NCBI GenBank assembly: GCA_016938065.1
Contig: JAFGVI010000139.1
Span: 4,747-68,746 of the forward strand
From: Deltaproteobacteria bacterium
GTDB taxonomy: Bacteria; Desulfobacterota; Anaeroferrophillalia; Anaeroferrophillales; Tharpellaceae
DNA length: 64,000 bases
Direction of reading: 5' to 3'
Below the pieces are notes generated by a model. It ran no database searches. It had not been told where the DNA came from and worked only from the letters and a program-made list of their open reading frames with translations. Below, one piece after another: positions 6,401 to 40,009 of this stretch. The position numbers and the translations under genes are program-made. The first letter of the stretch is position 1. Every line of letters begins with the position of its first letter.

Positions 6401-8314
6401 TCAGCCGCCATAGGCAACCGCCGAGAGAAAAGCCTGATCCTCCATGTCCATATAGTTATAGGCCAGGGTAAAAGTCAGATTGTCGACCGGCGCGAAAAAA
6501 AGATCCGCCCCTAAAGCATACATCTCTTTATCAAAGGAGTTGCCATGTCCCGGCACGTCCATTTTGACCTCTTCGAGATTGTAAAGAAAGTGGCCGCTGA
6601 CCGTAATTTTAGGTGAAATATTATAGGTCGCATGCGCTTTGAACTTATGCACACTCTCGGGCTCTGAAGTCAGATCGAGACTGCGGCTGTTATACATGAC
6701 ATAGTACTCGACCGAATCCGGTTTGGACGGCTGGGGGAGATTTTTAACCGAACAATACCCCGGTGTTGCAGCACAACCTACAGGATCAACATTGGCTCTA
6801 AGCCAGAGCAGCATCGCGTCAGGATCGGCATAGGCAGCCCGCTCATGCACGAAAGGATCATCAATGTCTTCATAAGAGTATTCAAACCGCAGACTCAGAT
6901 CTTTGACTGCGCGACTGTTTAAAGCAATTGAATAGGTATCACTGGTGGTTTTCAACTCAGTATCAACATCTTCAACTTCACGCTCCCAGCCGACCAGCAG
7001 ATTGGTCCGTTTAAAAACTTTGAATTTAAACTCAGCTCCATAGGTATCGGTATCGCGCGAAAGACTCGATTCCCGCTCCCAGGGCCAGCCGTCATGCTCC
7101 TGCGAAAAACCATGCAGACCAAAAAGGGTAGGATCGATAGCCGCCGAATTGGCTCCCTGCGGATCATAACTGGTATCATCGTAACTGATAACCACGTCAT
7201 CAGCATCGAGATTCTCATGGCGATATTTGAACGACATGGTCATGAATGAAACCGGAGCAGAGGTCAAACGCAGAGCATAAGCATCATAATCGTAGCTCGG
7301 ATCATCACTGATCGTCACATCGGCGCCGACAAAATTATCAGTTGCCGTATTGTTATCGATCTCGGAATGAACATAACTGCCGAAAACCGTGGTATTCATC
7401 GCCAGAGCCAACTGGGCTTTGACAATATGTGAATCCTTTTCCGAATCCGGGGTTGAGGAATAGACCAAATCACCTTCATTACCAAAATAGGTCAGCTTGG
7501 TATCCATTGCATTAGCTGTCATATACTGGTTGACCGGCGGTTTCGAATTTTCATCAAAGGTGCGTCGCAGAAAAGTGTAGTCGAGGGTTACCAGACCTAA
7601 GTGAGCCGTGGCCCCAATCGAAAAATCCTGGGTCTCCTCATCAATTTTGTGTTTATCGCCAGCCAGATGGCAGCCACCACACTTGCTCATGGTCCGGGTC
7701 TGTTCATACCCGGTGCGCTGCTCCATCCGATATTTGGCATGAAGCTTGATAAACTCGGCCCCGGGAATGATAAACTCATTATCGGAAACCAGCTCTTCAC
7801 GAACGACATACATATCGTCGCCCCACGAAGTGTTACGCACAACAGCAACATTAGGACCTACCAACTCCGGATGACCTAAAACCGCCTTGTCCGCTGCGGC
7901 CGTTGTAAAAGGATGGGTGGCGTCCATACCTGCCGGAAAAGCGAAATCAGGGTTGACATTGTAGTTAACCAAGTCGTCGTTTTCCAGCCAGTGAAGGAAT
8001 TTCTGATAGCTGTTCTTGGTCCGGAAATAGCGCTTTAGATCCAGATCAAGCTGTCCGCCCAGATCATCCTCATGCAGAAAGTTGACCCCGAAATCATATT
8101 TGATTCCGTTGTGATTACCGTTAATATTCATATCGAAGGTGGCATTGCCACCCTGATCCGCCGTCAGGTACTGCGCCGCACCTTCCCGCGAGTCATCAAT
8201 ATTGACCCCCTGTATACCAATCCCGACGCTGCCCGTGGTCTGTCCCGCCCACGAGAGAGCCGGTACCAGTGCCAGGCAGAGGGCCAGAATCATAAATAGT
8301 GCAATACGTTTCAT
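6401..8314 (-). CDS. MtrB/PioB-like decahaem-associated outer-membrane beta-barrel, N-terminal 637 codons, ending at an in-frame TGA
   Basis: GGAAGGAG RBS 5 nt before the ATG at 8314. Signal peptide MKRIALFMILALCLALVPALSWA. Gly/Asp/Asn/Tyr-rich sequence. The gene starts 19 nt after the decahaem cytochrome gene. It ends ...AVAYGG-TGA without a beta-signal. Confidence 0.65.
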   Translation of the reverse strand: MKRIALFMILALCLALVPALSWAGQTTGSVGIGIQGVNIDDSREGAAQYLTADQGGNATFDMNINGNHNGIKYDFGVNFLHEDDLGGQLDLDLKRYFRTKNSYQKFLHWLENDDLVNYNVNPDFAFPAGMDATHPFTTAAADKAVLGHPELVGPNVAVVRNTSWGDDMYVVREELVSDNEFIIPGAEFIKLHAKYRMEQRTGYEQTRTMSKCGGCHLAGDKHKIDEETQDFSIGATAHLGLVTLDYTFLRRTFDENSKPPVNQYMTANAMDTKLTYFGNEGDLVYSSTPDSEKDSHIVKAQLALAMNTTVFGSYVHSEIDNNTATDNFVGADVTISDDPSYDYDAYALRLTSAPVSFMTMSFKYRHENLDADDVVISYDDTSYDPQGANSAAIDPTLFGLHGFSQEHDGWPWERESSLSRDTDTYGAEFKFKVFKRTNLLVGWEREVEDVDTELKTTSDTYSIALNSRAVKDLSLRFEYSYEDIDDPFVHERAAYADPDAMLLWLRANVDPVGCAATPGYCSVKNLPQPSKPDSVEYYVMYNSRSLDLTSEPESVHKFKAHATYNISPKITVSGHFLYNLEEVKMDVPGHGNSFDKEMYALGADLFFAPVDNLTFTLAYNYMDMEDQAFLSAVAYGG

Positions 8315-8333
8315 GATCGCTCCTTCCGTCAAA

Positions 8334-9356
8334 TTATCTGGTTAAAGCCCGACCCTGTCCGGGGACTGTCTGGGATGGCAGATCGCTGCCGTGAACCTGG
8401 GAATGACACTGCGTACATTTGGTTGCATAAGCCTTAGCCCAGAGAGTTTTATCCGAATAATCATACTGGCTTGCTGAAATCGGATTGCCATAATTATCCG
8501 CGATTTCACCATTGGTTGCTACATCACGACTCCACGTCCGTCCGGCATGAAAATGAGGCTCATGACACTGCAGGCAGAGATAAGGCTCATTGGCTTTCTT
8601 CAGATTATTTGAAACCGTGCCATGAGGATCATGACAGATCATACAGTCATCGGAAACCGGAGAGTGTTCGAAAACAAACGGTCCCTGATAACGGGTATGA
8701 CAATTTAAACAGAGATCGTTAAGGCGCTCATCGGTTTTCAGATTTTTGACCATCGAACCGTGATTGGCATGACAGTCACTGCAGACCATCTTCCCTTCTT
8801 TAACCGGATGGTGTGAAGGATAGTACATTTTTGCCCGTTCCAGCGCATGACACTCGTAACAGAGCTCAGGTTCGGCTTTTTCCAGGGAAGCGGCCACCAC
8901 CGGAGGGCTGTGAATTTTATGACAGCTCAGACAACCGACATCATTCATCGGATGCGCCGTACCGGCCCAATCGAAATGCTCGCCGTCACTGTGGCAACGC
9001 AAACAGACTGCCGAAGCCGTCCCCGGGTCAAGTTTTTCAAATGAAATTACCTGACTCGGATCTTCTGATGCCGTATGCAAGCTCGCAGGTCCGTGACAGG
9101 TTTCGCAACCCTTCATTCCAATCGCCGTCTCCTTAGCCAGAATACGGTCATGGATCGAGCCGCTGAAGGCCGCGACCAAAGTATCATGGCAATCGGCGCA
9201 AGACTCGCTACCGGCAAACTGGGCCCCTTTAACGGGCACCGGTAGTTTGAGAACGCAAGCTCTATGACTGCTCAAAGTCGTACAGGCGGCAAGACTCATG
9301 GCTAACGCCATCAGTACCCCTGCTCCGAGCATAAGCCAATGCTTTTTCATGTTCAT
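8334..9356 (-). CDS. Decahaem c-type cytochrome, DmsE/MtrA-like
   Basis: 340 aa from the ATG at 9356 (AAGGAGAAG RBS upstream). Ten CXXCH motifs. Signal peptide with a lipobox-like LAAC. C-terminal CTQCHSQVHGSDLPSQ. The longer 432-aa track ORF has an implausible N-terminus. Confidence 0.85.
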   Translation of the reverse strand: MNMKKHWLMLGAGVLMALAMSLAACTTLSSHRACVLKLPVPVKGAQFAGSESCADCHDTLVAAFSGSIHDRILAKETAIGMKGCETCHGPASLHTASEDPSQVISFEKLDPGTASAVCLRCHSDGEHFDWAGTAHPMNDVGCLSCHKIHSPPVVAASLEKAEPELCYECHALERAKMYYPSHHPVKEGKMVCSDCHANHGSMVKNLKTDERLNDLCLNCHTRYQGPFVFEHSPVSDDCMICHDPHGTVSNNLKKANEPYLCLQCHEPHFHAGRTWSRDVATNGEIADNYGNPISASQYDYSDKTLWAKAYATKCTQCHSQVHGSDLPSQTVPGQGRALTR

Positions 9357-10070
9357 AACCTCTCTCTTCTCCTTGTTAAAAAACTTTCCTGCCCTGCAAT
9401 CCAGACAGGACCGACAAAAAGCAAACTCTATTGCCGCAAACCACCTCCTTTTCAACTGATTCTTTATTGCAGTTAATCCAATGTTAAGCCTAAAACATCC
9501 ACTTACTGAAAAAAATAAGTTGCCAATGAACAACCCTATCCGCTGGCCGCCGCATTGGTTAACAGCGAACGGGGCCGGTTTATACGACAAAACGGAACCG
9601 CATCCATGCCAACTCAGTATAGAAATCACCAATCGTAATAGTTGATTTAAATGGCACTGTCAATAGTTAAAATTAACTTATCACTAATCTGATTGTGAAA
9701 AAAATACTTTTAAATAATCTTTATATTCATATAATTACAAGGCAAATATGCTATCATGAATATTGAATTATTAGTATAAATTATACATTTCATTCAGGAC
9801 CCAGGCCGCCATAAACACCCTTAATATTACCCTTAAAACATCCCCTTCTAGGAAAAATAAGACGAGCGCAAAACGCTCTCTCAATCTTCTGCGCTGACAA
9901 AATAAGTCAACCTTTCGCTTGTCTTTACCGCTTTTTTTTGCTAAGAAGCCGCCTTTACTTATGATCCGCTTAAAGTGAATATATTTTTGCCCACACCGGC
10001 GGAATATTTTTCACCTTGTCACTGTTTTGAATTTTCACACTCAAAGACTTAATAAAATGAGGAATATTTC

Positions 10071-19288: not shown

Positions 19289-21004
19289 ATGATGCCGGAA
19301 TCATCCCCGAAAACCCTGTTCATCGCCAGTGACCATGGCGGTTACAGCCTTAAAGAGTTTCTGAAAGAAAATTTAACGGCAGGCTTCGCAACTATTGATT
19401 TAGGCACTGCCTCCGAAGCCTCGGTTGACTATCCACGTTTTGCTCATGCCCTGGCCGATCGCGTAGCCGCCGACCCTGACACTCGGGGTATTCTGATCTG
19501 CGGCACCGGCATCGGCATGTCGATCACCGCCAACCGGCATCGTAATATCCGCGCCGCGCTGGTGCATGACAACTTTACCGCACAGATGGCCAAAGAGCAT
19601 AACAATGCCAACATCCTCGTGCTCGGCGGCCGGGTGCTGGAGCCAAGCGTCGCTCTGGAACTTGTAAAAATCTGGCTGAATGCTCGATTTGAGGGCGGCC
19701 GGCACCAGCAGCGCCTTGATTTAATTGATAAATGCTCCGAGCAGCAAGGCCGCAACGTAGCCGCGCCCTTAAGTCAGGTTGATCCAGAAATCAGTCGCCT
19801 GATCATGCAGGAAACCGAACGTGAAGAGAGCAAGTTGATCATGATTGCCTCGGAGAACTGTGTCAGCCAGGCTGTCCTTGACGCTCAGGGCAGTGTGCTG
19901 ACCAACAAATATGCCGAAGGCTATCCCGGCAAACGCTATTACGGCGGCTGTCAATTTGTCGATCAGGCCGAACAGCTGGCCATTGATCGGGCTCTCGCTC
20001 TTTTTGGAGCCGACCACGCCAACGTTCAGCCCCTGTCTGGCTCCGGAGCCAACATGGCCGTCTATCTGAGTGTGCTGCAGCCGGGTGATAAGATCCTGGG
20101 CATGAATCTCGCCCATGGGGGTCACCTCACCCACGGCGCCACCGTCAGTTTCTCTGGACAGCTCTACCGCTCGACCTTTTACGGCGTCGACCGGAAAACA
20201 GAGCGCCTTGACTATGACGTTATCGAAGATATTGCCCTGCGGGAACGACCGCGCATGATTGTCGCCGGGGCCAGCTCCTACTCCAGAACCCTGGATTTCC
20301 CCCGTTTTCGCGCAATCGCCGATAAAGTCGGCGCCCTGCTCATGGTTGACATCGCCCACATTGCCGGCCTGGTGGTCTCAGAAGCCCATCCTTCTCCCGT
20401 GCCCTATGCCGACTTTGTTACGACAACAACCCATAAAACCCTGCGCGGCCCACGTGGCGGCATGATTCTCTGCCGCCGGGAATTTGCCAAAAAAATCAAC
20501 CAGACGATCTTCCCCGGCATTCAGGGCGGACCTCTGATGCACATCATCGCCGCCAAGGCCGTCGCCTTTAAAGAGGCCATGAGCGAGGAATTTAAAAATG
20601 TTCAGAAACAGACCGTTCTCAATGCCGCCTACCTGGCCGACCGCTTACAGGAAAAGGGCTTGCGCATCGTCTCCGGCGGCACCGACAATCATCTTTTTCT
20701 GATCGACCTGACCAATCTGCCGGTCAACGGCAAAAGGGCGGAAGAAGCTCTTGATAATGCCGGCATTACGGCCAATAAAAACGGCATCCCCTTCGACCCG
20801 CGCAATCCGGCCGACCCCAGCGGCATCCGCATCGGTACCCCGATTGCTTCAACCAGAGGCATGCGGGAGACGGAAATGAAGATCGTTGCCGACTGTATTG
20901 CCGCGGTGCTCCAGAACCCTGAAGATGAAACCGTCAGCAAACAGGTCCGATCAACCATCCGGGAGCTGTGTACGCAATTCCCGGTCTACAGCCACCTGCT
21001 TTGA
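19289..21004 (+). CDS. glyA: Fusion protein: ribose-5-phosphate isomerase B (N-terminal ~150 aa) plus serine hydroxymethyltransferase (C-terminal ~415 aa)
   Basis: Single 571-aa ORF. The RpiB part has LFIASDHGG and [14 protein letters not shown]. The SHMT part has [38 protein letters not shown] and [11 protein letters not shown]. There is no stop or frameshift at the junction. Confidence 0.9.
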
Positions 21005-33588: not shown

Positions 33589-33618
33589 GCAGGGCGGGAA
33601 ATATGCTTCCCGCCCTGC
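33589..33618. terminator. Perfect 12-bp GC-rich hairpin between convergent genes
   Basis: GCAGGGCGGGAA / TTCCCGCCCTGC with a 6-nt loop. There is no U-run on either strand, so the terminator function is tentative. Confidence 0.4.
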
Positions 33619-33684: not shown

Positions 33685-34830
33685 TCAATCCTTGATCCAG
33701 AAAGGTTTGGGCGCCTTTTTAAAGGATGGATCGAGGGCCGGGTTGACGACGGACTCCGATGCAGCCTCGGCCGGGCTCGCTTGCCCGAGGCCCTTGCCAG
33801 CCGGCAATGCCTTTATCACAACCTGTTTGTCAACCTTGCCGACCACCGGTTTGACTCTCGGCTTCCGCCAGAAAGGTATGGGAGCTTTACTGAAAGAATC
33901 AACCTTGACTGCCGGAAGAGCCGAAGCTGCCGGGGCCGGAACCGCCGGCTTCACCTTGCCTGAAGCCTTGTCAATGAGAGAACCCCGAGGTCTCATCTGC
34001 CGCCAGAACGGAATCGGGGCCCGGTCAAAGGAGCTGTCCCGTTTAAGCGCCGGCGCGGCGACCGACTCGGTGACCGCCGCTTCGCTTGCGGTCTTTTTTG
34101 CCGGCAAGAGACCGGCCGAAACCGAGACTGCTACTTTTTTTGCCGCCTTCTGCCATTCAAGGGCGGACTGTTCAAGCTGTTCCAACCGGGTTTGCAGACG
34201 ACTGTTCTCAGCTTCCAGGCCCATGACTTTAGTCGTCAGCAGCGAAATTGCAACTTTACCCTGCTCAACCTTAAGTTCAGCCGCCTTTCTCAAGGGCACA
34301 GAGGAGATCACATAAAACCAGAAAAGGGCCAGCAGCACGAGAACGACAAACATCGAGACAATACCGGAAGAACCGGAAGCGCTATCATCAGCGGGCGCCG
34401 GCGGAGTGTTTTTCATCAAGGATTCACCTTTTTCACTAGGGTTAGGGTCTTCAAGAACATCGTCAGCAAGGACATCGTCAGCAAAACTATTCCCGGCACT
34501 AAGCGCTTCGCCATCCGTCTCAATCAGCCCGGCTGCACCTTCGTCGAACTGGTTTTGTTCTGGAACCTCGGGCACGATGACAACGGCCTCTTCCACACTT
34601 TCCGTCGCCGACCCAGAGCTTATTTCAACCGCTGCCTTACTCTCTTCGCCGGCAGTTTCTTTAACCTGAACCACCTCGACGGCAACCGGGATTTCAATCC
34701 CGGCCCCACTGAAAAAAGCAGCCATCTTCTCCTTGTCAATCGGGGCCGGATCTTTATCTACCAGCTTTTTCCGCCGACTGCGACCGGCCGCGGCTTTGCC
34801 TGATTTAGGATTTTTCTTTGCGGTTGTCAT
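33685..34830 (-). CDS. Hypothetical membrane-anchored coiled-coil protein with three AP-x-PFW repeats (ParA partner candidate)
   Basis: 381 aa. The ATG overlaps the ParA TGA (GTATGACA). It has a Lys/Arg-rich N-terminus, an acidic stretch, one hydrophobic helix (IVSMFVVLVLLALFWFYVISSV), a coiled coil (LEAENSRLQTRLEQLEQSALEWQK), and three SF-x-[KR]-AP-[IK]-PFW motifs, the last at the C-terminus. I recognise no family. Confidence 0.6.
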   Translation of the reverse strand: MTTAKKNPKSGKAAAGRSRRKKLVDKDPAPIDKEKMAAFFSGAGIEIPVAVEVVQVKETAGEESKAAVEISSGSATESVEEAVVIVPEVPEQNQFDEGAAGLIETDGEALSAGNSFADDVLADDVLEDPNPSEKGESLMKNTPPAPADDSASGSSGIVSMFVVLVLLALFWFYVISSVPLRKAAELKVEQGKVAISLLTTKVMGLEAENSRLQTRLEQLEQSALEWQKAAKKVAVSVSAGLLPAKKTASEAAVTESVAAPALKRDSSFDRAPIPFWRQMRPRGSLIDKASGKVKPAVPAPAASALPAVKVDSFSKAPIPFWRKPRVKPVVGKVDKQVVIKALPAGKGLGQASPAEAASESVVNPALDPSFKKAPKPFWIKD

Positions 34831-35573
34831 ACGAACAACTCCTCATAAATCTTCTGATAATCTTCACGAGCCCGGGAACGTCCTCCGAACTCAACAATGG
34901 TCTGCTGCCGGCTGGAAGCCTGCTGCACTTTAGTATCAACCCGCACCGGGGACATAACCAGATCCCCGTAACGCTCCGTCAGTGCCGCCAGCACATCCTT
35001 ACTGACATTGACCCGCTGATCATAAAAGGTCGGCAGAATACCGCAGACCCGAACCTCTTTTTCAAAATACTCCTCAATCATCTTCAGGTTTTCAAAGACC
35101 TGACCGACACCGACCATCGCCAGATAATCCATGCTCACCGGCAAAAGCAGTTCATCGACATAGACCAGAGCATTCTGACCGAGAATCGAGAGCGAAGGGG
35201 AACAGTCGAGCAAGACCACACTGAGGCCCGGCAACACCTCTTCCACCCCGGCCAGGGCCCGCTTTAAAGCCTCTTCCCGCCGCGGTCTAGTCACCAGCAC
35301 CGTTTCACAGGCGGCCAGGGTCTGATCCGAGAGCAGACAGTAGAGATTTTCGCGGGCCTCAACCAGACAGTCCGCCAGCGGCTTACCGTCCACCAGAAGA
35401 TCGTAAAGCGAATTCCCGCACTTAACCCCGAAACTCTCCGCCACATTGCCCTGAGCATCAAGATCAACCACCAGTACCTTATGCCCGGCTGCGGCGAGAC
35501 AGTGAGCCAGACTGATAACCGTCGTCGTTTTGCCGGTGCCCCCTTTGAAATTCTGACAGGCAATCTTGCGCAT
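34827..35573 (-). CDS. ParA/MinD-superfamily ATPase (orphan ParA-like)
   Basis: 248 aa from the ATG at 35573 (GAGG RBS). Deviant Walker A NFKGGTGKTT, VVDLDAQGN, and Walker B-like VLLDCSPS. Confidence 0.85.
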   Translation of the reverse strand: MRKIACQNFKGGTGKTTTVISLAHCLAAAGHKVLVVDLDAQGNVAESFGVKCGNSLYDLLVDGKPLADCLVEARENLYCLLSDQTLAACETVLVTRPRREEALKRALAGVEEVLPGLSVVLLDCSPSLSILGQNALVYVDELLLPVSMDYLAMVGVGQVFENLKMIEEYFEKEVRVCGILPTFYDQRVNVSKDVLAALTERYGDLVMSPVRVDTKVQQASSRQQTIVEFGGRSRAREDYQKIYEELFV

Positions 35574-35709
35574 CAAAAAAACCTCAACCCCTGAGATGGT
35601 TAACCCCTGAAAGCAAGCGGGCCGCAACCCCTTGACCAAGCTTATCTTTCAGCGGCCAAGCCTTAACAAATGCCCTTTCCGCTTGTCAAGTGATTTAATG
35701 CTTTTAACT

Positions 35710-37342: not shown

Positions 37343-40009
37343 ATGCCCCCGATCCCTCTGCCCAAATTCCTGCGCAACGGCATTGCTCTCGCCCTTATCG
37401 GCTGGACCCTTCTCAACCTCGGTTCAACCTGTTTTTTTCTGCAGCGGGAATGGCGACAAACCCTGGAAAATGGCCGCAATCTGGGACGCGGCGTCATTCA
37501 GAAAGACTTTGCCTATCGACTCTGGAACGCCGCTCACGGCGGCGTCTATGTTCCGGTTGACCCGAACACCCTGCCCAACCCCTATCTCAGCCACGTCAAG
37601 GAACGAGATATTACAACACCATCCGGCACGCTTTTGACCAAAATCAACCCGGCCTACATGACCCGCCAGGTACATAAATTCGGCGAGAAAGAGTACGGCA
37701 TCAAGGGCCACATCACCAGCCTTAAACTGATGCGACCGGAGAACCAAGCCGATCAATGGGAGAGCCGGGTCCTGAAAGATTTCGCACAGCATCCGAACCT
37801 GAAAGAGTTTTCAGAACTTACTGCGATGGATGAGCAGGAACCCTTCATGCGCATCATGGTGCCGCTCAAAATCCGCAAGGAATGTCTTACCTGCCACGCT
37901 TACCAGGCGTACAAGATCGGCGATCTGCGGGGCGGTATCAGTGCCTCCATACCCATGCGCAAGTTAATTGCGCAAACCCGCCAGGCGATGTTCCTGCTTT
38001 GCACCTACCATACCATGATCTTTCTTCTGGGTGTTCTGGCCCTGGCTTTTTTCTATGTTGCCGGACGCCGGCGCATAACGGAATTAGACCAGGCCAACCG
38101 CCTGGTGAGCCAGAATGAAGAAATGCTGCAGGGGATTATCGATAACACGGAAAGCGCGATTGCGATCTATGAGAGCAATCTGGACGGCTCAAAATTTTTC
38201 TGTAAAAGTTTAAACCCCGCCGGCGAAAAGATTACCGGACTCAAAACCTCAGAAATCCGGGGCCGGGAGGTGCGTGAGATCTTCCCCGCGATTGCGGAGA
38301 TGGGACTTTTTGCCGTACTGCAAAGGGTCTGGCGCAGCGGTCAACCGGAGTTTCTTCCGCTCTCCAGATACAACGATGAGCGCCTCTCTCTCTGGGTTGA
38401 AAACAAGGTTTTCAAACTACCAGGGGGTGAAATTGTCGCCGTCGTTGATGACTTGACCTTAAAAAAAGAGGCTGAAACCGAGCTCAACCAAAGTCAGCAG
38501 CGCTGGCAGAAGACCTTCGATGCCATCCCCGACATCATCACCCTGCTTGATCCGGAGCTACGTGTCGTCCAGGCCAACCGCGCTGCCTGCAAGCTCTTCC
38601 GGGATAACGGGGAACTGATCGGCAAACACTGCTACGAACTCTTCAGCGCAACGGCTGAGCCCTGTTCCACCTGCCCGTCGCTGAAAATTTTCACCGACAA
38701 TCACAATCATACTGAAGTGATCGAACATTGCAATCTGGGAAAAACCTTTCTGGTCAGCATCACCCCGATCTTTGATGAAAAAGGTGCGCTCAGCCACCTG
38801 ATCCATTCCGCACGCGACATCAGCGAACGGGTTAAACTCAACGAAGAGCTCTGCCAGACCCGGAAAATGGAGGCGATCGGGACTTTAGCCGGAGGCGTGG
38901 CCCACGACTTCAACAACATTCTCACCGTAATTCGCGGCCATGCTGAACTGGCAATGATGCAGAGCGACGAGAAAAACCAGTTCTGGAATGACTTTGAAGC
39001 GATTGCCGGCGCCGCGGATCGGGCCAGTCTCCTGACCCGTCAGCTCCTCGCCTTCAGCCGCAAAGAGAAGATCAATCCCGAAATCATTCAAGTTGCTCCG
39101 CTGATTACAAACTTAGGGAAAATGCTTAAACGTCTGATCGGTGAAGATGTTGAGCTTGACCTCAAACTCGACAACCATCTTCCTCCCATTCTGGCTGACC
39201 GGGTCCAGATCGAACAGATTATCATCAACCTGATTGTCAACGCCGCCGACGCGACTCGCGACGTCCCCCTTCAGACCGGCCGCAAGATCACCCTCAGCGC
39301 AAGCCCGGGGTCTGTAAACAGCGAAAGTCGGGAGAATGCAGAGGCGGCAGAGGGGGTTGCGGGGCCTCCGGCGCTGTGGCTTGAGATCAGCGATAACGGC
39401 TGCGGCATACCGGAAAATCTTCTGAGCAAAATCTTCGATCCTTTTTTCACCACCAAAGAGCGCGGCAAAGGCACCGGTCTGGGCCTCTCCACCGTCCATG
39501 GCATCGTCAAACAGAATCAGGCTCAGATCAGGGTTACGAGCCAACCCGGCCGGGGCAGCACCTTCACAATTATCTGGCCCGGCAGCGAAAGCTGCGGCCA
39601 CACCCGGAAGGAGCAGAGACCGGAGAACGCAGTGGGCGGCAGTGAAACCATCCTCATCGCTGAAGATGATCAGGCCACACGCGACATGACCGCCAAAGCC
39701 CTGCGCCATGCCGGTTATTACGTTCTGGAGGCGGGCAACGGTGAAGAGGCCGTGGCCCTGGCTCAAAACAGAGACACGATCGATCTTCTCTTCAGTGACC
39801 TGGTCATGCCGCGGATGGGCGGCCTCGAACTCGCAGCCGAACTGCGTCGGTTCTTCCCCGAGATCAGGATCATCCTGACCTCGGGTTATCTTAGCGAGCG
39901 TGCCTCCATCCTTGATGGCGAAACCTTAGAACAAACTACCTTTATCGACAAACCCTACCAGATGGCCGGGCTCTTGCGGACGATCAGAGAGATTCTCGAC
40001 CGGAATTGA
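37343..40009 (+). CDS. Hybrid sensor histidine kinase with periplasmic haem-c (DUF3365/Tll0287-like) domain, PAS domains and C-terminal REC
   Basis: 888 aa. TM, periplasmic region with a single CLTCH, TM, two PAS-like regions, H-box [11 protein letters not shown], HATPase DNGCGI / GTGLGLSTV, and [16 protein letters not shown]. Confidence 0.85.

Follow-up and report, generated by a model that had tools for sequence, protein, structure and literature searches.

ParA/MinD ATPases place DNA and cytoplasmic bodies within the cell and act indirectly on the siting of polar membrane machines, and the locus described here raises the question of what such an ATPase would position when its gene is coupled to that of a membrane protein. 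The pair lies in a 64-kb window (the whole stretch of DNA that was analysed), and the coordinates of its features are collected in Table 1.

Table 1. Features of the parA-like gene, of its partner gene and of their surroundings.
Feature	Position	Strand	Description
parA-like gene	34827..35573	(-)	248-aa Soj-type deviant Walker A ATPase; start MRKIACQNFKGGTGKTT
Deviant Walker A KGGTGKTT	35523..35546	(-)	ParA residues 10-17; signature Lys K10, P-loop Lys K15
YDQR	35013..35024	(-)	ParA residues 184-187; R187 opposite the Arg of Soj 'YDGR' (alignment to 1wcv, 4pfs)
ATGA overlap (GTATGA context)	34827..34830	(-)	parA stop TGA inside partner start ATG
Partner gene	33685..34830	(-)	381-aa bitopic, mostly disordered protein (long form)
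Activator-like peptide	34696..34830	(-)	Partner residues 1-45: Lys/Arg-rich tail, then I-D-K-E-K-M-A-A-F-F-S-G-A-G
Acidic disordered linker	34417..34695	(-)	Residues ~45-138; net charge about -21; poorly conserved (predicted disorder)
Candidate internal RBS AGGTGA + ATG	34414..34429	(-)	AGGTGA 34424..34429, 7-nt spacer, Met139 ATG 34414..34416
Single TM helix	34297..34362	(-)	Residues 157-178, 22 residues, IVSMFVVLVLLALFWFYVISSV; ends in conserved aromatic belt FWFY
Leucine-zipper-like coiled coil	34129..34296	(-)	Residues 179-234, continuous with TM helix (AF2)
PFW motif 1 DSSFDRAPIPFWRQ	33997..34038	(-)	Residues 265-278
PFW motif 2 DSFSKAPIPFWRK	33862..33900	(-)	Residues 311-323
PFW motif 3 DPSFKKAPKPFWIKD	33688..33732	(-)	Residues 367-381, extreme C-terminus
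Hairpin, perfect 12-bp stem/6-nt loop	33589..33618	(-)	3' of partner, before convergent pabC-like gene

Judged by its motifs and its Pfam matches (AAA_31, 1.6e-41; CbiA, 3e-21; both above cut-off), the product of the upstream gene is a member of the ParA/MinD (deviant Walker A, SIMIBI) ATPase superfamily. The ATG at 35573 is favoured as its start over an upstream TTG at 35639 because homologues are likewise 248 aa long. DLDAQGN occupies residues 37-43, and the segments VVDLDAQGN (35-43) and VVLLDCSP (119-126) align with their equivalents in Soj and in a ParA-like protein of M. smegmatis. The nearest solved structures are Soj-type, the PDB search returning the M. smegmatis protein at 1e-34 and T. 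thermophilus Soj at 3e-31. R211 and K215 fall inside the segment aligned to 'PRNVR' of Soj, and R187 stands at what we take to be the position of B. subtilis Soj R189, required for non-specific DNA binding in work reportedly due to Hester and Lutkenhaus in 2007. The protein thus appears to keep basic residues equivalent to the Soj DNA-binding set, and one or two aligned residues suggest DNA binding itself. The protein has no N-terminal HTH, and its alignment to the Soj structures reveals no C-terminal membrane-targeting or extra amphipathic helix; the C-terminal EELFV aligns with the end of Soj, and the protein stops at the last helix of the core.

Several named systems built on such ATPases were considered for this gene and rejected. 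For a ParABS-type Soj/ParA, the downstream gene has no ParB domains, no ParB-family match was found among the scanned window ORFs of at least 150 aa, and a TM partner takes the place of parB in all related loci. MinD is excluded by an NCBIfam minD_bact score of 25.7 bits against a cut-off of 212.9, by the missing C-terminal amphipathic helix and by the lack of minC or minE nearby, and BcsQ by a TIGR03371 score of 71.3 bits against 157.85 and by the lack of bcs genes in the scanned window ORFs or related loci. The RepA/SopA, VirC1, MipZ and NifH equivalogs all stayed far under their NCBIfam cut-offs. As for an anti-phage defence system, PADLOC gave no match to the partner and matched ParA to PDC-M28B over 37 P-loop residues.

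The two genes share an ATGA overlap that, on its sequence, is a case of translational coupling, with a Shine-Dalgarno sequence (GAGGAG) 8 nt upstream of the partner ATG, and the hairpin downstream of the partner is likely to be the end of the operon. The abutting or overlapping geometry is found in long-form and short-form loci as well. Wherever DNA upstream of the partner is available, the gene directly before it is that of ParA: this holds for 14 loci of a tblastn survey and for L020, L024, L032, L033 and L034, and the adjacency extends even to the much more diverged short partner forms. Because the pair recurs in every related locus, the association is far above chance. A preliminary description of this DNA had reported the ParA-like ATPase with KGGTGKTT and DLDAQGN and the overlap of its TGA with the partner ATG, both of which are where it had placed them, and it had raised the conservation of the pair as a question, which these loci answer in the affirmative. 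Its reference to Desulfuromonadales relatives could not be demonstrated, the hosts being 'Ca. Tharpella'/Thermodesulfobacteriota MAGs.

The surroundings offer no hint of a cargo. Transcribed divergently from the pair are genes for a sigma-54 activator and for a hybrid kinase of Tll0287-like/PAS type; this neighbourhood, as first described, is present here, yet it is not conserved in related loci. Control of the pair by the divergent activator was also rejected, since there is no sigma-54 promoter match upstream of parA and the activator is not conserved. A scan of window ORFs of at least 150 aa detected no parB, min, flagellar, chemotaxis, cellulose, pilus or microcompartment genes, which matches the earlier account of the context; the scan covered ORFs on either side of 43-47 kb, smaller ORFs being included between 28 and 42 kb. 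Integrase, Rep and transfer genes were likewise absent from the scanned window ORFs, as were iterons or centromere-like repeats from the region upstream of parA. Synteny with pabC, recQ, an HDOD kinase and lipid-A genes is kept across loci, and no cargo gene is conserved next to the pair in them. The core-chromosome flanks, the conserved pabC/recQ synteny and the lack of iterons upstream of parA suggest that the pair serves a host function rather than a mobile island.

The partner is made of a few ordered segments in an otherwise disordered chain. Residues 1-30 carry a net charge of +8, and the N-terminal peptide to which they belong is followed by the acidic linker, whose length varies from 58 to 141 aa across the family, by the TM helix and the coiled coil, and by a basic, Pro/Ala/Lys-rich C-terminal tail bearing three PFW short linear motifs. 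In the AlphaFold2 model, residues 156-234 form one unbroken helix (block-mean pLDDT 84-96 over 161-230) and a short helix spans residues 33-41; order is limited to this peptide helix, the TM and coiled-coil helix and the PFW motifs, 58 % of the model lies below pLDDT 50, and there is no globular domain. The core of all three PFW motifs is invariant across 30 homologues, and at the DNA level these motifs are the sole convincing direct-repeat family in the region. The partner has no signal peptide, and this, together with its 156-aa N-terminal region and the homology of its N-terminal peptide, is the basis of the proposed topology with the N-terminus inside the cell. The positive-inside rule is uninformative or mildly contrary to that orientation, because the C side of the TM helix (2.4 K+R, vs 0.9 on the N side) and the C-terminal region (mean net charge +23) are the more basic.

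The N-terminal peptide links this protein to other partners of ParA. MTT, the K/R tail and IDKEKMAAFFSxxG are invariant in 30 partner sequences, the last of these motifs lying at residues 31-44 (34699..34740) of the present protein, and short partner forms retain RKKALAEVP...KKMAALF. The soluble partners of the nearest mobile-element ParAs start RKALHDVPKPKEDKLALFY, RKALKNIPKPDEEKLQALY and SKALKNVPAVDKEKLAGLY, and their N-termini align with the partner peptide, K35 being invariant even there; they have the bipartite peptide RKAL..VP...DKEK[ML]xA[FL][FY] in common with it. The partner peptide is thus homologous to the tails of mobile-element partition partners, and it may activate ParA as they would. 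Unrelated ParA/MinD activators work via short basic N-terminal extensions (PMC7993993; PMC11407121). Mini-form partners (178 aa) have the TM helix and coiled coil and no basic N-peptide, and therefore coupling to ParA may rest on more than that peptide.

The partner family is rare: it counts 32 clusters in a set of 5.8 billion proteins and about 17 members in one of 1.84 billion representatives, and every one stems from uncultured Thermodesulfobacteriota, "Ca. Tharpella" among them. Two shorter forms occur in sister ParA clades; the TM and coiled-coil core is common to all three forms and homologous among them (hhalign 95.9 %; BLASTP 4e-10), the PFW motifs are absent from the shorter ones, and mini-form partners have invariant C-terminal helices. 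A metagenome scan for mini-form loci found none. In a neighbour-joining tree built without support values, in which gene contexts are known for a handful of tips, the ParAs that have TM partners group into a single clade lying among those of mobile-element modules. The closest ParAs outside this clade belong to partition modules of mobile elements with small soluble partners, and outgroup modules carry MerR/excisionase, Rep, TraG, integrase and toxin-antitoxin genes; among sequenced plasmids, nothing is closer than about 35 % identity. The C-terminal part of the mobile-element partners is presumably DNA-binding (RHH-like), an impression that goes beyond the profiles, as the RHH assignment found no Pfam, PHROG or PDB support and homology to ParG is unsupported (hhalign 0.2 %). 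Across related loci, ParA is 84-94 % identical and the partner 30-51 %, whereas RecQ (66-76 %) and the PabC-like protein (54-67 %) serve as comparison genes from the same loci; ParA is conserved at the level of SerA. Such a difference in rate is typical of ATPase/activator pairs, and PomZ and PomX/PomY display the same asymmetry (PMC7993993).

No described family claims the partner. Searches of Pfam, NCBIfam, PHROGs (with any partner form) and PADLOC gave no family match, and the PDB profile search gave generic coiled coils alone (GCN4, Lpp, keratin). A TolA, FimV-HubP or SPOR-type protein was rejected, since neither the query nor 30 members matched TolA, FimV, LysM or SPOR at E<=1; TolA_bind_tri was touched by 2 of the 30 members as coiled-coil noise. 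Membership in FtsB/DivIC/FtsL was also rejected, the likeness being one of architecture: hhalign against approximate reference sequences gave 8 % for FtsB, 3 % for DivIC and 0.2 % for FtsL, and the Pfam families DivIC (12/30 members, best E 0.004) and FtsL_2 (5/30) were touched below the gathering threshold in every case. A type Ib-like plasmid module does not fit either, as the partner has no detectable DNA-binding domain (AF2 finds TM/coiled-coil order) and no iterons lie upstream. The preliminary description had set the partner outside any known family and had laid it out as a basic tail, an acidic stretch, a 22-residue helix, a coiled coil and three PFW motifs, all of which was recovered; its idea that a basic N-terminal peptide acts as ATPase activator is directly supported by the alignment with the soluble mobile-element partners. 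The repeat architecture that it had singled out holds insofar as the PFW motifs are present, yet they are a lineage-specific addition to a core formed by a pre-TM segment, the TM helix and the coiled coil.

The reading that we prefer, and that we would accept about as readily as refuse, is that of a self-contained two-gene ParA/activator module that passed from mobile-element DNA partition to the chromosome and there positions an envelope protein via the nucleoid. ParA, from its likeness to Soj, would form ATP-sandwich dimers and, in that state, cover the nucleoid. The partner would have kept the ancestral ParA-contact peptide, in which DKEKMAAFF, with its invariant Lys, comes after a basic tail, and its C-terminal, presumably DNA-binding, part would have been swapped for an acidic tether of ~100 aa, a TM helix and a coiled coil. 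Anchored in the inner membrane, its N-terminus facing the cytoplasm, and oligomerising via the coiled coil, the partner could extend its tethered N-peptides to ParA-ATP on the nucleoid and, by binding it, set off ATP hydrolysis, such that partner clusters would follow or deplete nucleoid ParA by a diffusion-ratchet and end up positioned, or evenly spread, relative to the chromosome, along with any envelope component bound by the C-terminal tail. ParA DNA binding, peptide-stimulated ATPase activity, N-in/C-out topology and positioning behaviour are all predicted here from sequence.

We found no described case in the literature of an ATPase-activating adaptor that is an integral membrane protein and a dedicated, translationally coupled partner. 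If the preferred reading is true, the nucleoid would serve as a ruler that places an inner-membrane or periplasmic component directly, and the family would exemplify modular re-use, the same activating N-peptide being joined in one case to a small, soluble and presumably DNA-binding protein and in the other to a membrane anchor. The pair would also provide a compact two-gene system that lends itself to reconstruction in E. coli for testing tether length, valency and membrane confinement in diffusion-ratchet positioning, and a candidate cell-organisation system for the uncultured deep-branching lineage 'Ca. Tharpellota'.

The same observations can be arranged in other ways. The partner may be no cargo adaptor and instead a trans-acting membrane anchor for ParA, in the role of the MinD amphipathic helix, either bridging nucleoid and membrane without ParB, and so aiding chromosome organisation or segregation, or sequestering and inactivating ParA, and so regulating some further activity of ParA, for instance an influence on replication like that of Soj. 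A ParA that lacks its own membrane-targeting helix and is strictly coupled to a TM protein would suit this explanation, as would SerA-level conservation, which is expected from several interaction surfaces, the failure to find parB among the scanned ORFs of the window and a long acidic tether fit for spanning membrane and nucleoid. We nevertheless think it unlikely, as the N-peptide is homologous to that of partition partners, for which the literature describes activation and release, not stable tethering (PMC7993993), and the conserved coiled coil, the PFW repeats and the C-terminal helices of the mini-form would be superfluous for a simple anchor.

A link to the divisome seems less probable still. 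On this account, the TM and zipper unit joins or recruits periplasmic divisome or septal-wall proteins while nucleoid ParA sets a mid-nucleoid or inter-nucleoid place, making the pair a functional analogue of PomXYZ or MipZ that acts via a membrane-embedded adaptor. The architecture is indeed FtsB/DivIC-like, DivIC is the Pfam family most often touched by members (sub-threshold), one source names a member 'FtsB', and PomXYZ is a precedent for ParA-guided marking of the division site (PMC7993993); however, the profile homology fails as described above, no dcw, fts or min genes adjoin the pair in any locus, and a TM helix with a coiled coil is a common generic architecture. Least credible to us, and very improbable, is that the locus is a decaying remnant of a partition module that came with an integrated plasmid or ICE and plays no part in positioning within the cell, or that it encodes co-transcribed proteins that do not interact (for example, with the N-terminal region in the periplasm). 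In favour of this stand the mobile-element location of the nearest ParA relatives, the failure of the positive-inside rule to favour N-in, and the mini-form, which lacks the basic peptide. Set against these are strong purifying selection on ParA and specific partner motifs across a deep clade, stable chromosomal synteny, the absence of integrase, Rep and transfer genes from the scanned window ORFs, and the conservation of both the overlap geometry and the cytoplasmic-type N-peptide.

The pair shares with type Ib-like modules of the ParF-ParG (TP228) kind a minimal deviant Walker A ParA of ~250 aa, a partner gene directly downstream of and coupled to parA, a basic N-peptide that aligns with those of the closest mobile-element partners, and a ParA clade nested among theirs. 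It differs from them in the acidic IDR, TM helix, coiled coil and PFW repeats, which come without a detectable DNA-binding domain, and in a stably chromosomal location free of centromere-like repeats, replication or transfer genes. HubP/FimV of Vibrio and TipN of Caulobacter are membrane-anchored, acidic or coiled-coil-rich proteins that contact ParA-family ATPases; they differ by LysM/FimV domains, of which the present partner has no Pfam match, by two TM helices, by the opposite topology of HubP and by the absence of an operon-coupled dedicated ParA, and we know of no N-terminal activating peptide in them. FtsB, DivIC and FtsL have the layout proposed here, a cytoplasmic N-terminus and a single TM helix with a leucine zipper straight after it, but the present partner has a far longer N-terminal region bearing a ParA-type peptide and a different C-terminal region.

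Cytoplasmic positioning systems are similar in logic. PomXYZ of Myxococcus xanthus also combines an orphan ParA-like ATPase with a modular activator made of a short basic N-peptide, disorder and a coiled coil (PMC7993993), but PomX is a cytoplasmic protein that, joined by a second activator, PomY, builds a cluster on the nucleoid, whereas the present partner is anchored in the membrane and the locus has no third gene. In the database searches, no homology of the partner to PomX emerged. McdA-McdB, ParC-ParP and PpfA-TlpT likewise pair a ParA-type ATPase with an adaptor that has a basic N-terminal region and connects a protein cargo with the nucleoid or the pole (PMC11407121). These soluble adaptors bind a recognisable cargo whose genes lie close by, whereas no BMC or che genes are present here, and McdA matches the present ParA weakly (5e-7, PDB search).

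The partner gene may also yield a second product, as a conserved internal Shine-Dalgarno sequence and ATG suggest a 243-aa isoform without the ParA-contact tail. This short isoform could co-assemble with the long one via the coiled coil and tune the number of ParA-contact tails per cluster. An extended version of the preferred reading, which we regard as rather doubtful, would have the ParA ratchet relay the position of the chromosome through the inner membrane to a site in the periplasm or outer envelope via the PFW tail, the two isoforms setting contact-tail number and cluster movement. At the candidate internal start, synonymous positions are kept, with Lys encoded by AAA in 15/15 genes (P=5e-4) and Gly by GGT in 13/14 (P=3e-5).

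The ATPase of the gene pair is a bona fide member of the ParA/MinD family of the Soj-like type, and both open reading frames were recovered at the positions and with the features first ascribed to them when the sequence was re-inspected. The ATPase bears a deviant Walker A motif (KGGTGKTT, residues 10–17), the motif DLDAQGN (residues 37–43) and the Walker B strand VVLLDCSP, and it matches the Pfam families AAA_31 (1.6e-41) and CbiA (3e-21). Its nearest solved structures are the ParA-like protein of M. smegmatis (4pfs/5ihp, 7e-34) and T. thermophilus Soj (3e-31); another ParA (8ray) and H. pylori Soj are also among its closest PDB matches, and MinD, ParF, McdA and NifH reach 1e-7 to 1e-5 at most in the same search. 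None of the NCBIfam equivalogs reaches its cut-off on this protein, the top one being BcsQ (71 bits vs. 158). ParABS, MinD, BcsQ or any other named equivalog were rejected as the identity of the ATPase or of its system. In the alignment with Soj, R187 (YDQR) lies opposite the arginine of the Soj motif YDGR, which we take to be the position of the residue required for non-specific DNA binding (Hester & Lutkenhaus 2007), R211 and K215 fall within the stretch aligned to PRNVR of Soj, and the C-terminus coincides with the end of Soj, a MinD-type amphipathic helix being absent. Nucleoid binding by the ATPase is therefore plausible, given these aligned arginine and basic residues.

The TGA of parA overlaps the ATG of the partner gene (GTATGA, 34827..34830), and the sequence GAGGAG is found 8 nt 5′ of this ATG (see the table for the layout of the locus). 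The preliminary description could place the partner in no recognisable family, which was borne out by searches of Pfam, NCBIfam, PHROGs and PADLOC, all without match, and by the kind of profile search that it had proposed, in which a 30-homologue profile compared with all PDB sequences returned generic coiled coils only (GCN4, Lpp, keratin). The partner thus belongs to no described family. The Pfam family DivIC is weakly touched by 12 of the 30 family members (best E-value of 0.004, sub-threshold). Homology to FtsB, DivIC or FtsL was rejected, with profile comparison giving probabilities of 8, 3 and 0.2 %, respectively, and the likeness to these proteins is one of architecture only. The AlphaFold2 model of the partner, computed with the family alignment, has a mean pLDDT of 53.6, and order is limited to the helix KEKMAAFFS (residues 33–41), the transmembrane (TM)/coiled-coil helix (block-mean pLDDT of 84–96 over residues 161–230) and small blips at the PFW motifs.

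Layout of the ParA-partner locus and of its candidate internal start (window coordinates, or residues of the partner where indicated)
Feature	Position	Strand	Remarks
ParA gene	34827..35573	-	248 aa; N-terminus MRKIACQNFKGGTGKTT
Partner gene	33685..34830	-	381 aa
Partner, basic tail	residues 1-30	-	net charge +8
Partner, acidic disordered stretch	residues 45-138	-	net charge -21
Partner, hydrophobic helix of 22 residues	residues 157-178	-	same helix extended to residue 234 by AlphaFold2
Partner, three PFW motifs		-	DSSFDRAPIPFWRQ, DSFSKAPIPFWRK, DPSFKKAPKPFWIKD
Internal Shine-Dalgarno-like AGGTGA and ATG (Met139)	34414..34431; ATG 34414..34416	-	7-nt gap; ATG invariant
Hairpin, perfect 12-bp stem	33589..33618		3′ of the gene pair

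The adjacency of the two genes, on whose conservation the preliminary description had made the pairing depend, holds throughout the related loci: tblastn places parA directly upstream of the partner gene, abutting or overlapping it, in 14 of the 14 loci that contain both genes, and the two loci that show no ParA (L002 and L017) are on contigs that end before the upstream DNA. Across loci, tblastn with the window proteins gives 84–94 % identity for ParA and 30–51 % for the partner; reference identities are about 86 % for SerA, 66–76 % for RecQ, 65–82 % for the HDOD kinase and 54–67 % for the PabC-like aminotransferase. A similar asymmetry of conservation separates PomZ from PomX/PomY (PMC7993993). 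Synteny also extends to the convergent pabC-like gene, recQ and the gene of the HDOD kinase in all loci. The family is rare, with 32 clusters retrieved by a word-seeded search of 5.8 billion proteins, and 25 matches at E ≤ 1e-3, of which about 17 are real, when 1.84 billion representatives were scanned exhaustively with an HMM. Its sequences are metagenomic in every case, and the loci from genome collections belong to metagenome-assembled genomes (MAGs) that carry the label Thermodesulfobacteriota or Deltaproteobacteria or, in a few cases, Pseudomonadota, Bacteroidota or generic “bacterium.” “Ca. Tharpella aukensis” and “Ca. Tharpella sp.” are among these MAGs. The assignment of the relatives to Desulfuromonadales, as first guessed, is not supported as such, since these labels read Thermodesulfobacteriota or “Ca. 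Tharpella,” the latter being a candidate phylum proposed from hydrothermal sediments (PMC9213671).

The partner family extends beyond the form with PFW motifs. Two more distant ParA homologues (P0043 and P0046, 66–68 % identity) each overlap by 4 bp a downstream ORF, of 312 aa in one case and 255 aa in the other, without match in Pfam, and pabC is still adjacent in one of these two loci. These short forms begin with MTTSTSRGKRKTAAERRKRALAEVP...DRKDKMAAFFAAE and MSAAKRREPSTGAKKKKALAEVPERVPVARKKMAALFAAD and run on through an acidic linker and the motif LVKG(E/G)K.M into a TM helix (...LVWFYAS), after which the C-terminus is helical and PFW motifs are absent; the profile of the long form (the partner with PFW motifs) matches them with 95.9 % probability across the pre-TM, TM and coiled-coil segment. 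In the ParA clade of P0080, the next gene codes for a 178-aa mini-form, in which a Pro-rich N-terminus precedes a TM helix and the helical C-terminus is strongly conserved. The mini-form is a homologue of the short form (BLASTP, 4e-10), the match running from the pre-TM region through the TM helix to the coiled coil. These successive homologies indicate that the TM helix and the coiled coil are the conserved core of the ParA-linked protein, to which one lineage has added the PFW tail. The mini-form does not carry the basic N-terminal peptide, its start having been checked (in-frame stop and good ribosome-binding site), and its linkage to ParA nonetheless makes additional or alternative ParA contacts possible. 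The C-terminal segment of the mini-form is near-invariant (TLDLKKALVSLREVG...VEGALKALINELE; L035 1231-1767, alignment A5) and far better conserved than any part of the long-form C-terminus; one source annotates the mini-form as “HemX.” Another ParA homologue, the metagenomic protein P0112 (387 aa, JGI), covers 58 % of the query ParA with 82 % identity and includes a ROK-family region (PF00480) as well; a chimera produced by assembly or a frameshift is more probable here than a real fusion.

At 51–60 % identity, all ParA homologues with readable context are found in mobile-element modules, where ParA and its partner are accompanied by a MerR/excisionase-type HTH protein and a replication protein, and TraG, an integrase or a toxin-antitoxin system is encoded nearby. 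A TM segment is absent from the partners read in these modules, two of which are small proteins of 120 and 177 aa (N-termini MSQDKRKALHDVPKPKEDKLALFY and MVRKALKNIPKPDEEKLQALY), the third being of 396 aa (L022 6734-7924). Large partners (396–418 aa) occur in some of these relatives (L022 and L030 1192-2448, of which that of L022 alone was translated). A ribbon-helix-helix end of the mobile-element partners was an impression to which checks gave no support, and it is excluded from the evidence. Alignment of membrane and mobile-element partners reveals a bipartite peptide, [RK][RK]K-a-L-x-x-[VI]-P followed by a short spacer and [DE]-K-[ML]-x-[AG]-[FL]-[FY], in which the sole invariant residue is the lysine matching K35 of the window partner. 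In the L022 partner, this activator-type peptide (VSKALKNVPAVDKEKLAGLY) is joined to a region with weak similarity to Phage_rep_O/HTH_36, and the peptide thus appears to be a portable module carried by several different C-terminal bodies. The otherwise unrelated activators ParB, SopB, ParG, MinE and PomX, and probably McdB and TlpT, act via short basic N-terminal extensions (PMC7993993; PMC11407121). In a neighbor-joining tree, computed without support values and with contexts annotated for few tips, one clade unites two sister groups, the ParAs whose TM partners are of the long form and those whose TM partners are of the short form. This clade is nested among others containing mobile-element ParAs, and Soj and the M. 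smegmatis ParA-like protein branch outside. The simplest reading of these sequences is that the membrane partner would have inherited its ParA-activating peptide from the partner of a partition module, whose C-terminal, presumably DNA-binding, part would have been swapped for an acidic tether and a membrane anchor.

In the mechanism that we propose, ParA-ATP dimers would sit on the nucleoid, and the partner would be an inner-membrane protein with a cytoplasmic N-terminus, forming oligomers via its coiled coil. Each oligomer would expose several activating peptides on tethers of about 100 residues, which, being acidic, are expected to be repelled by both DNA and membrane. Contact of a peptide with ParA would elicit ATP hydrolysis and local ParA depletion, and a diffusion-ratchet could position or space partner clusters relative to the nucleoid, along with whatever the C-terminal region binds. 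The N-in topology is the weakest link: it is suggested by a missing signal peptide, by how large and how charged the N-terminal region is, and by the cytoplasmic type of its peptide, but the K+R content of the TM flanks (N side, 0.9; C side, 2.4) leaves it without support from the positive-inside rule. After the coiled coil, the C-terminal region is basic (net +14 in the window protein) and Pro/Ala/Lys-rich, the whole post-TM region having a family mean net charge of +23, and in the long form it contains three invariant aromatic-proline motifs. If periplasmic, this region is compositionally similar to the extended linkers of TonB or TolA, and it could dock on an envelope protein, peptidoglycan or an anionic membrane surface. 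As far as can be inferred, the partner works by the same logic as ParG, PomX and McdB, the modular activators of ParA ATPases; unlike activators of these types, it is membrane-embedded, for which the literature searched provided no precedent among activators of ParA ATPases. The interest of the pair lies in its clear evolutionary story, its compact, testable design and a possible new class of cargo, and is tempered by its restriction to uncultured lineages.

The partner gene may also encode a second product. A near-invariant protein motif, EKGExxMTT, lies 18 residues ahead of the TM helix. In 15 unique genes, the products of which share just 30–50 % identity, this motif corresponds at the DNA level to nearly constant nucleotides (AAAGGTGA). 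The Lys codon is AAA in all 15 genes (gene-wide share of 0.60, P = 5e-4) and the Gly codon is GGT in 13 of 14 (gene-wide share of 0.38, P = 3e-5), in sequences that are phylogenetically non-independent, and the adjacent Glu and Thr codons are variable. The AGGTGA in this stretch is complementary to the 16S 3′ tail over all six bases, and the AGGTGA/ATG site is also present in L001, L003, L004, L007-L010, L012-L015, L020, L024 and L033. Such a constrained site could alternatively be a pausing element and not an internal start. On the side of an internal start, the residues MTT that follow the ATG are the same as those at the annotated N-terminus, and several mini-form clusters are called as starting exactly at the Met aligned with Met139. 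Along with the synonymous constraint and the spacing of AGGTGA, these observations suggest a shorter isoform (243 aa) devoid of the ParA-contact tail; the two isoforms could assemble together.

The surroundings of the pair are chromosomal. All window ORFs of at least 150 aa that were scanned are of the core chromosome, including rpoD, dnaG, fab genes, glyA, nrdR, ribD, lpxK and other lipid-A genes, serA, ptsP and nuoLMN, and synteny with the related locus L001 points to liv genes as well. As initially reported, these ORFs contain no hint of a cargo, and no cargo gene is conserved beside the pair in the related loci. Genes for ParB, Min or divisome proteins are absent from these ORFs, as are those for flagella, pili, cellulose synthesis or microcompartments. 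The divergent sigma-54 activator and haem kinase, seen at the outset as possible companions of the pair, are conserved with it only in the closer relatives L004, L005, L008 and L019, other genes being found elsewhere, and there is no sigma-54 promoter consensus upstream of parA. A Tll0287-like (haem-sensor type) histidine kinase is encoded in the window at 37343..40009 (+ strand), on the upstream side of the parA operon and within a few kb of it, and recurs there in many, not all, loci (L003 2721-5056, L032 1767-4125, L015, L018); the regulators paired with it differ, being of the NtrC type in the window and of the OmpR type elsewhere, and Rieske/cytochrome b genes adjoin it in L003 and L032. 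Farther away (6401..9632, - strand), an MtrB/PioB-like outer-membrane beta-barrel (643 aa) lies beside a multihaem cytochrome (432 aa) with paired CXXCH and NrfB-like domains, together a porin-cytochrome conduit typical of extracellular electron transfer. Finally, a 571-aa ORF (19289..21004, + strand) combines an RpiB/LacAB ribose-5-phosphate isomerase (residues 11–146) with a full serine hydroxymethyltransferase (residues 161–537); either the two genes are fused or the ORF finder has joined separate genes by read-through.
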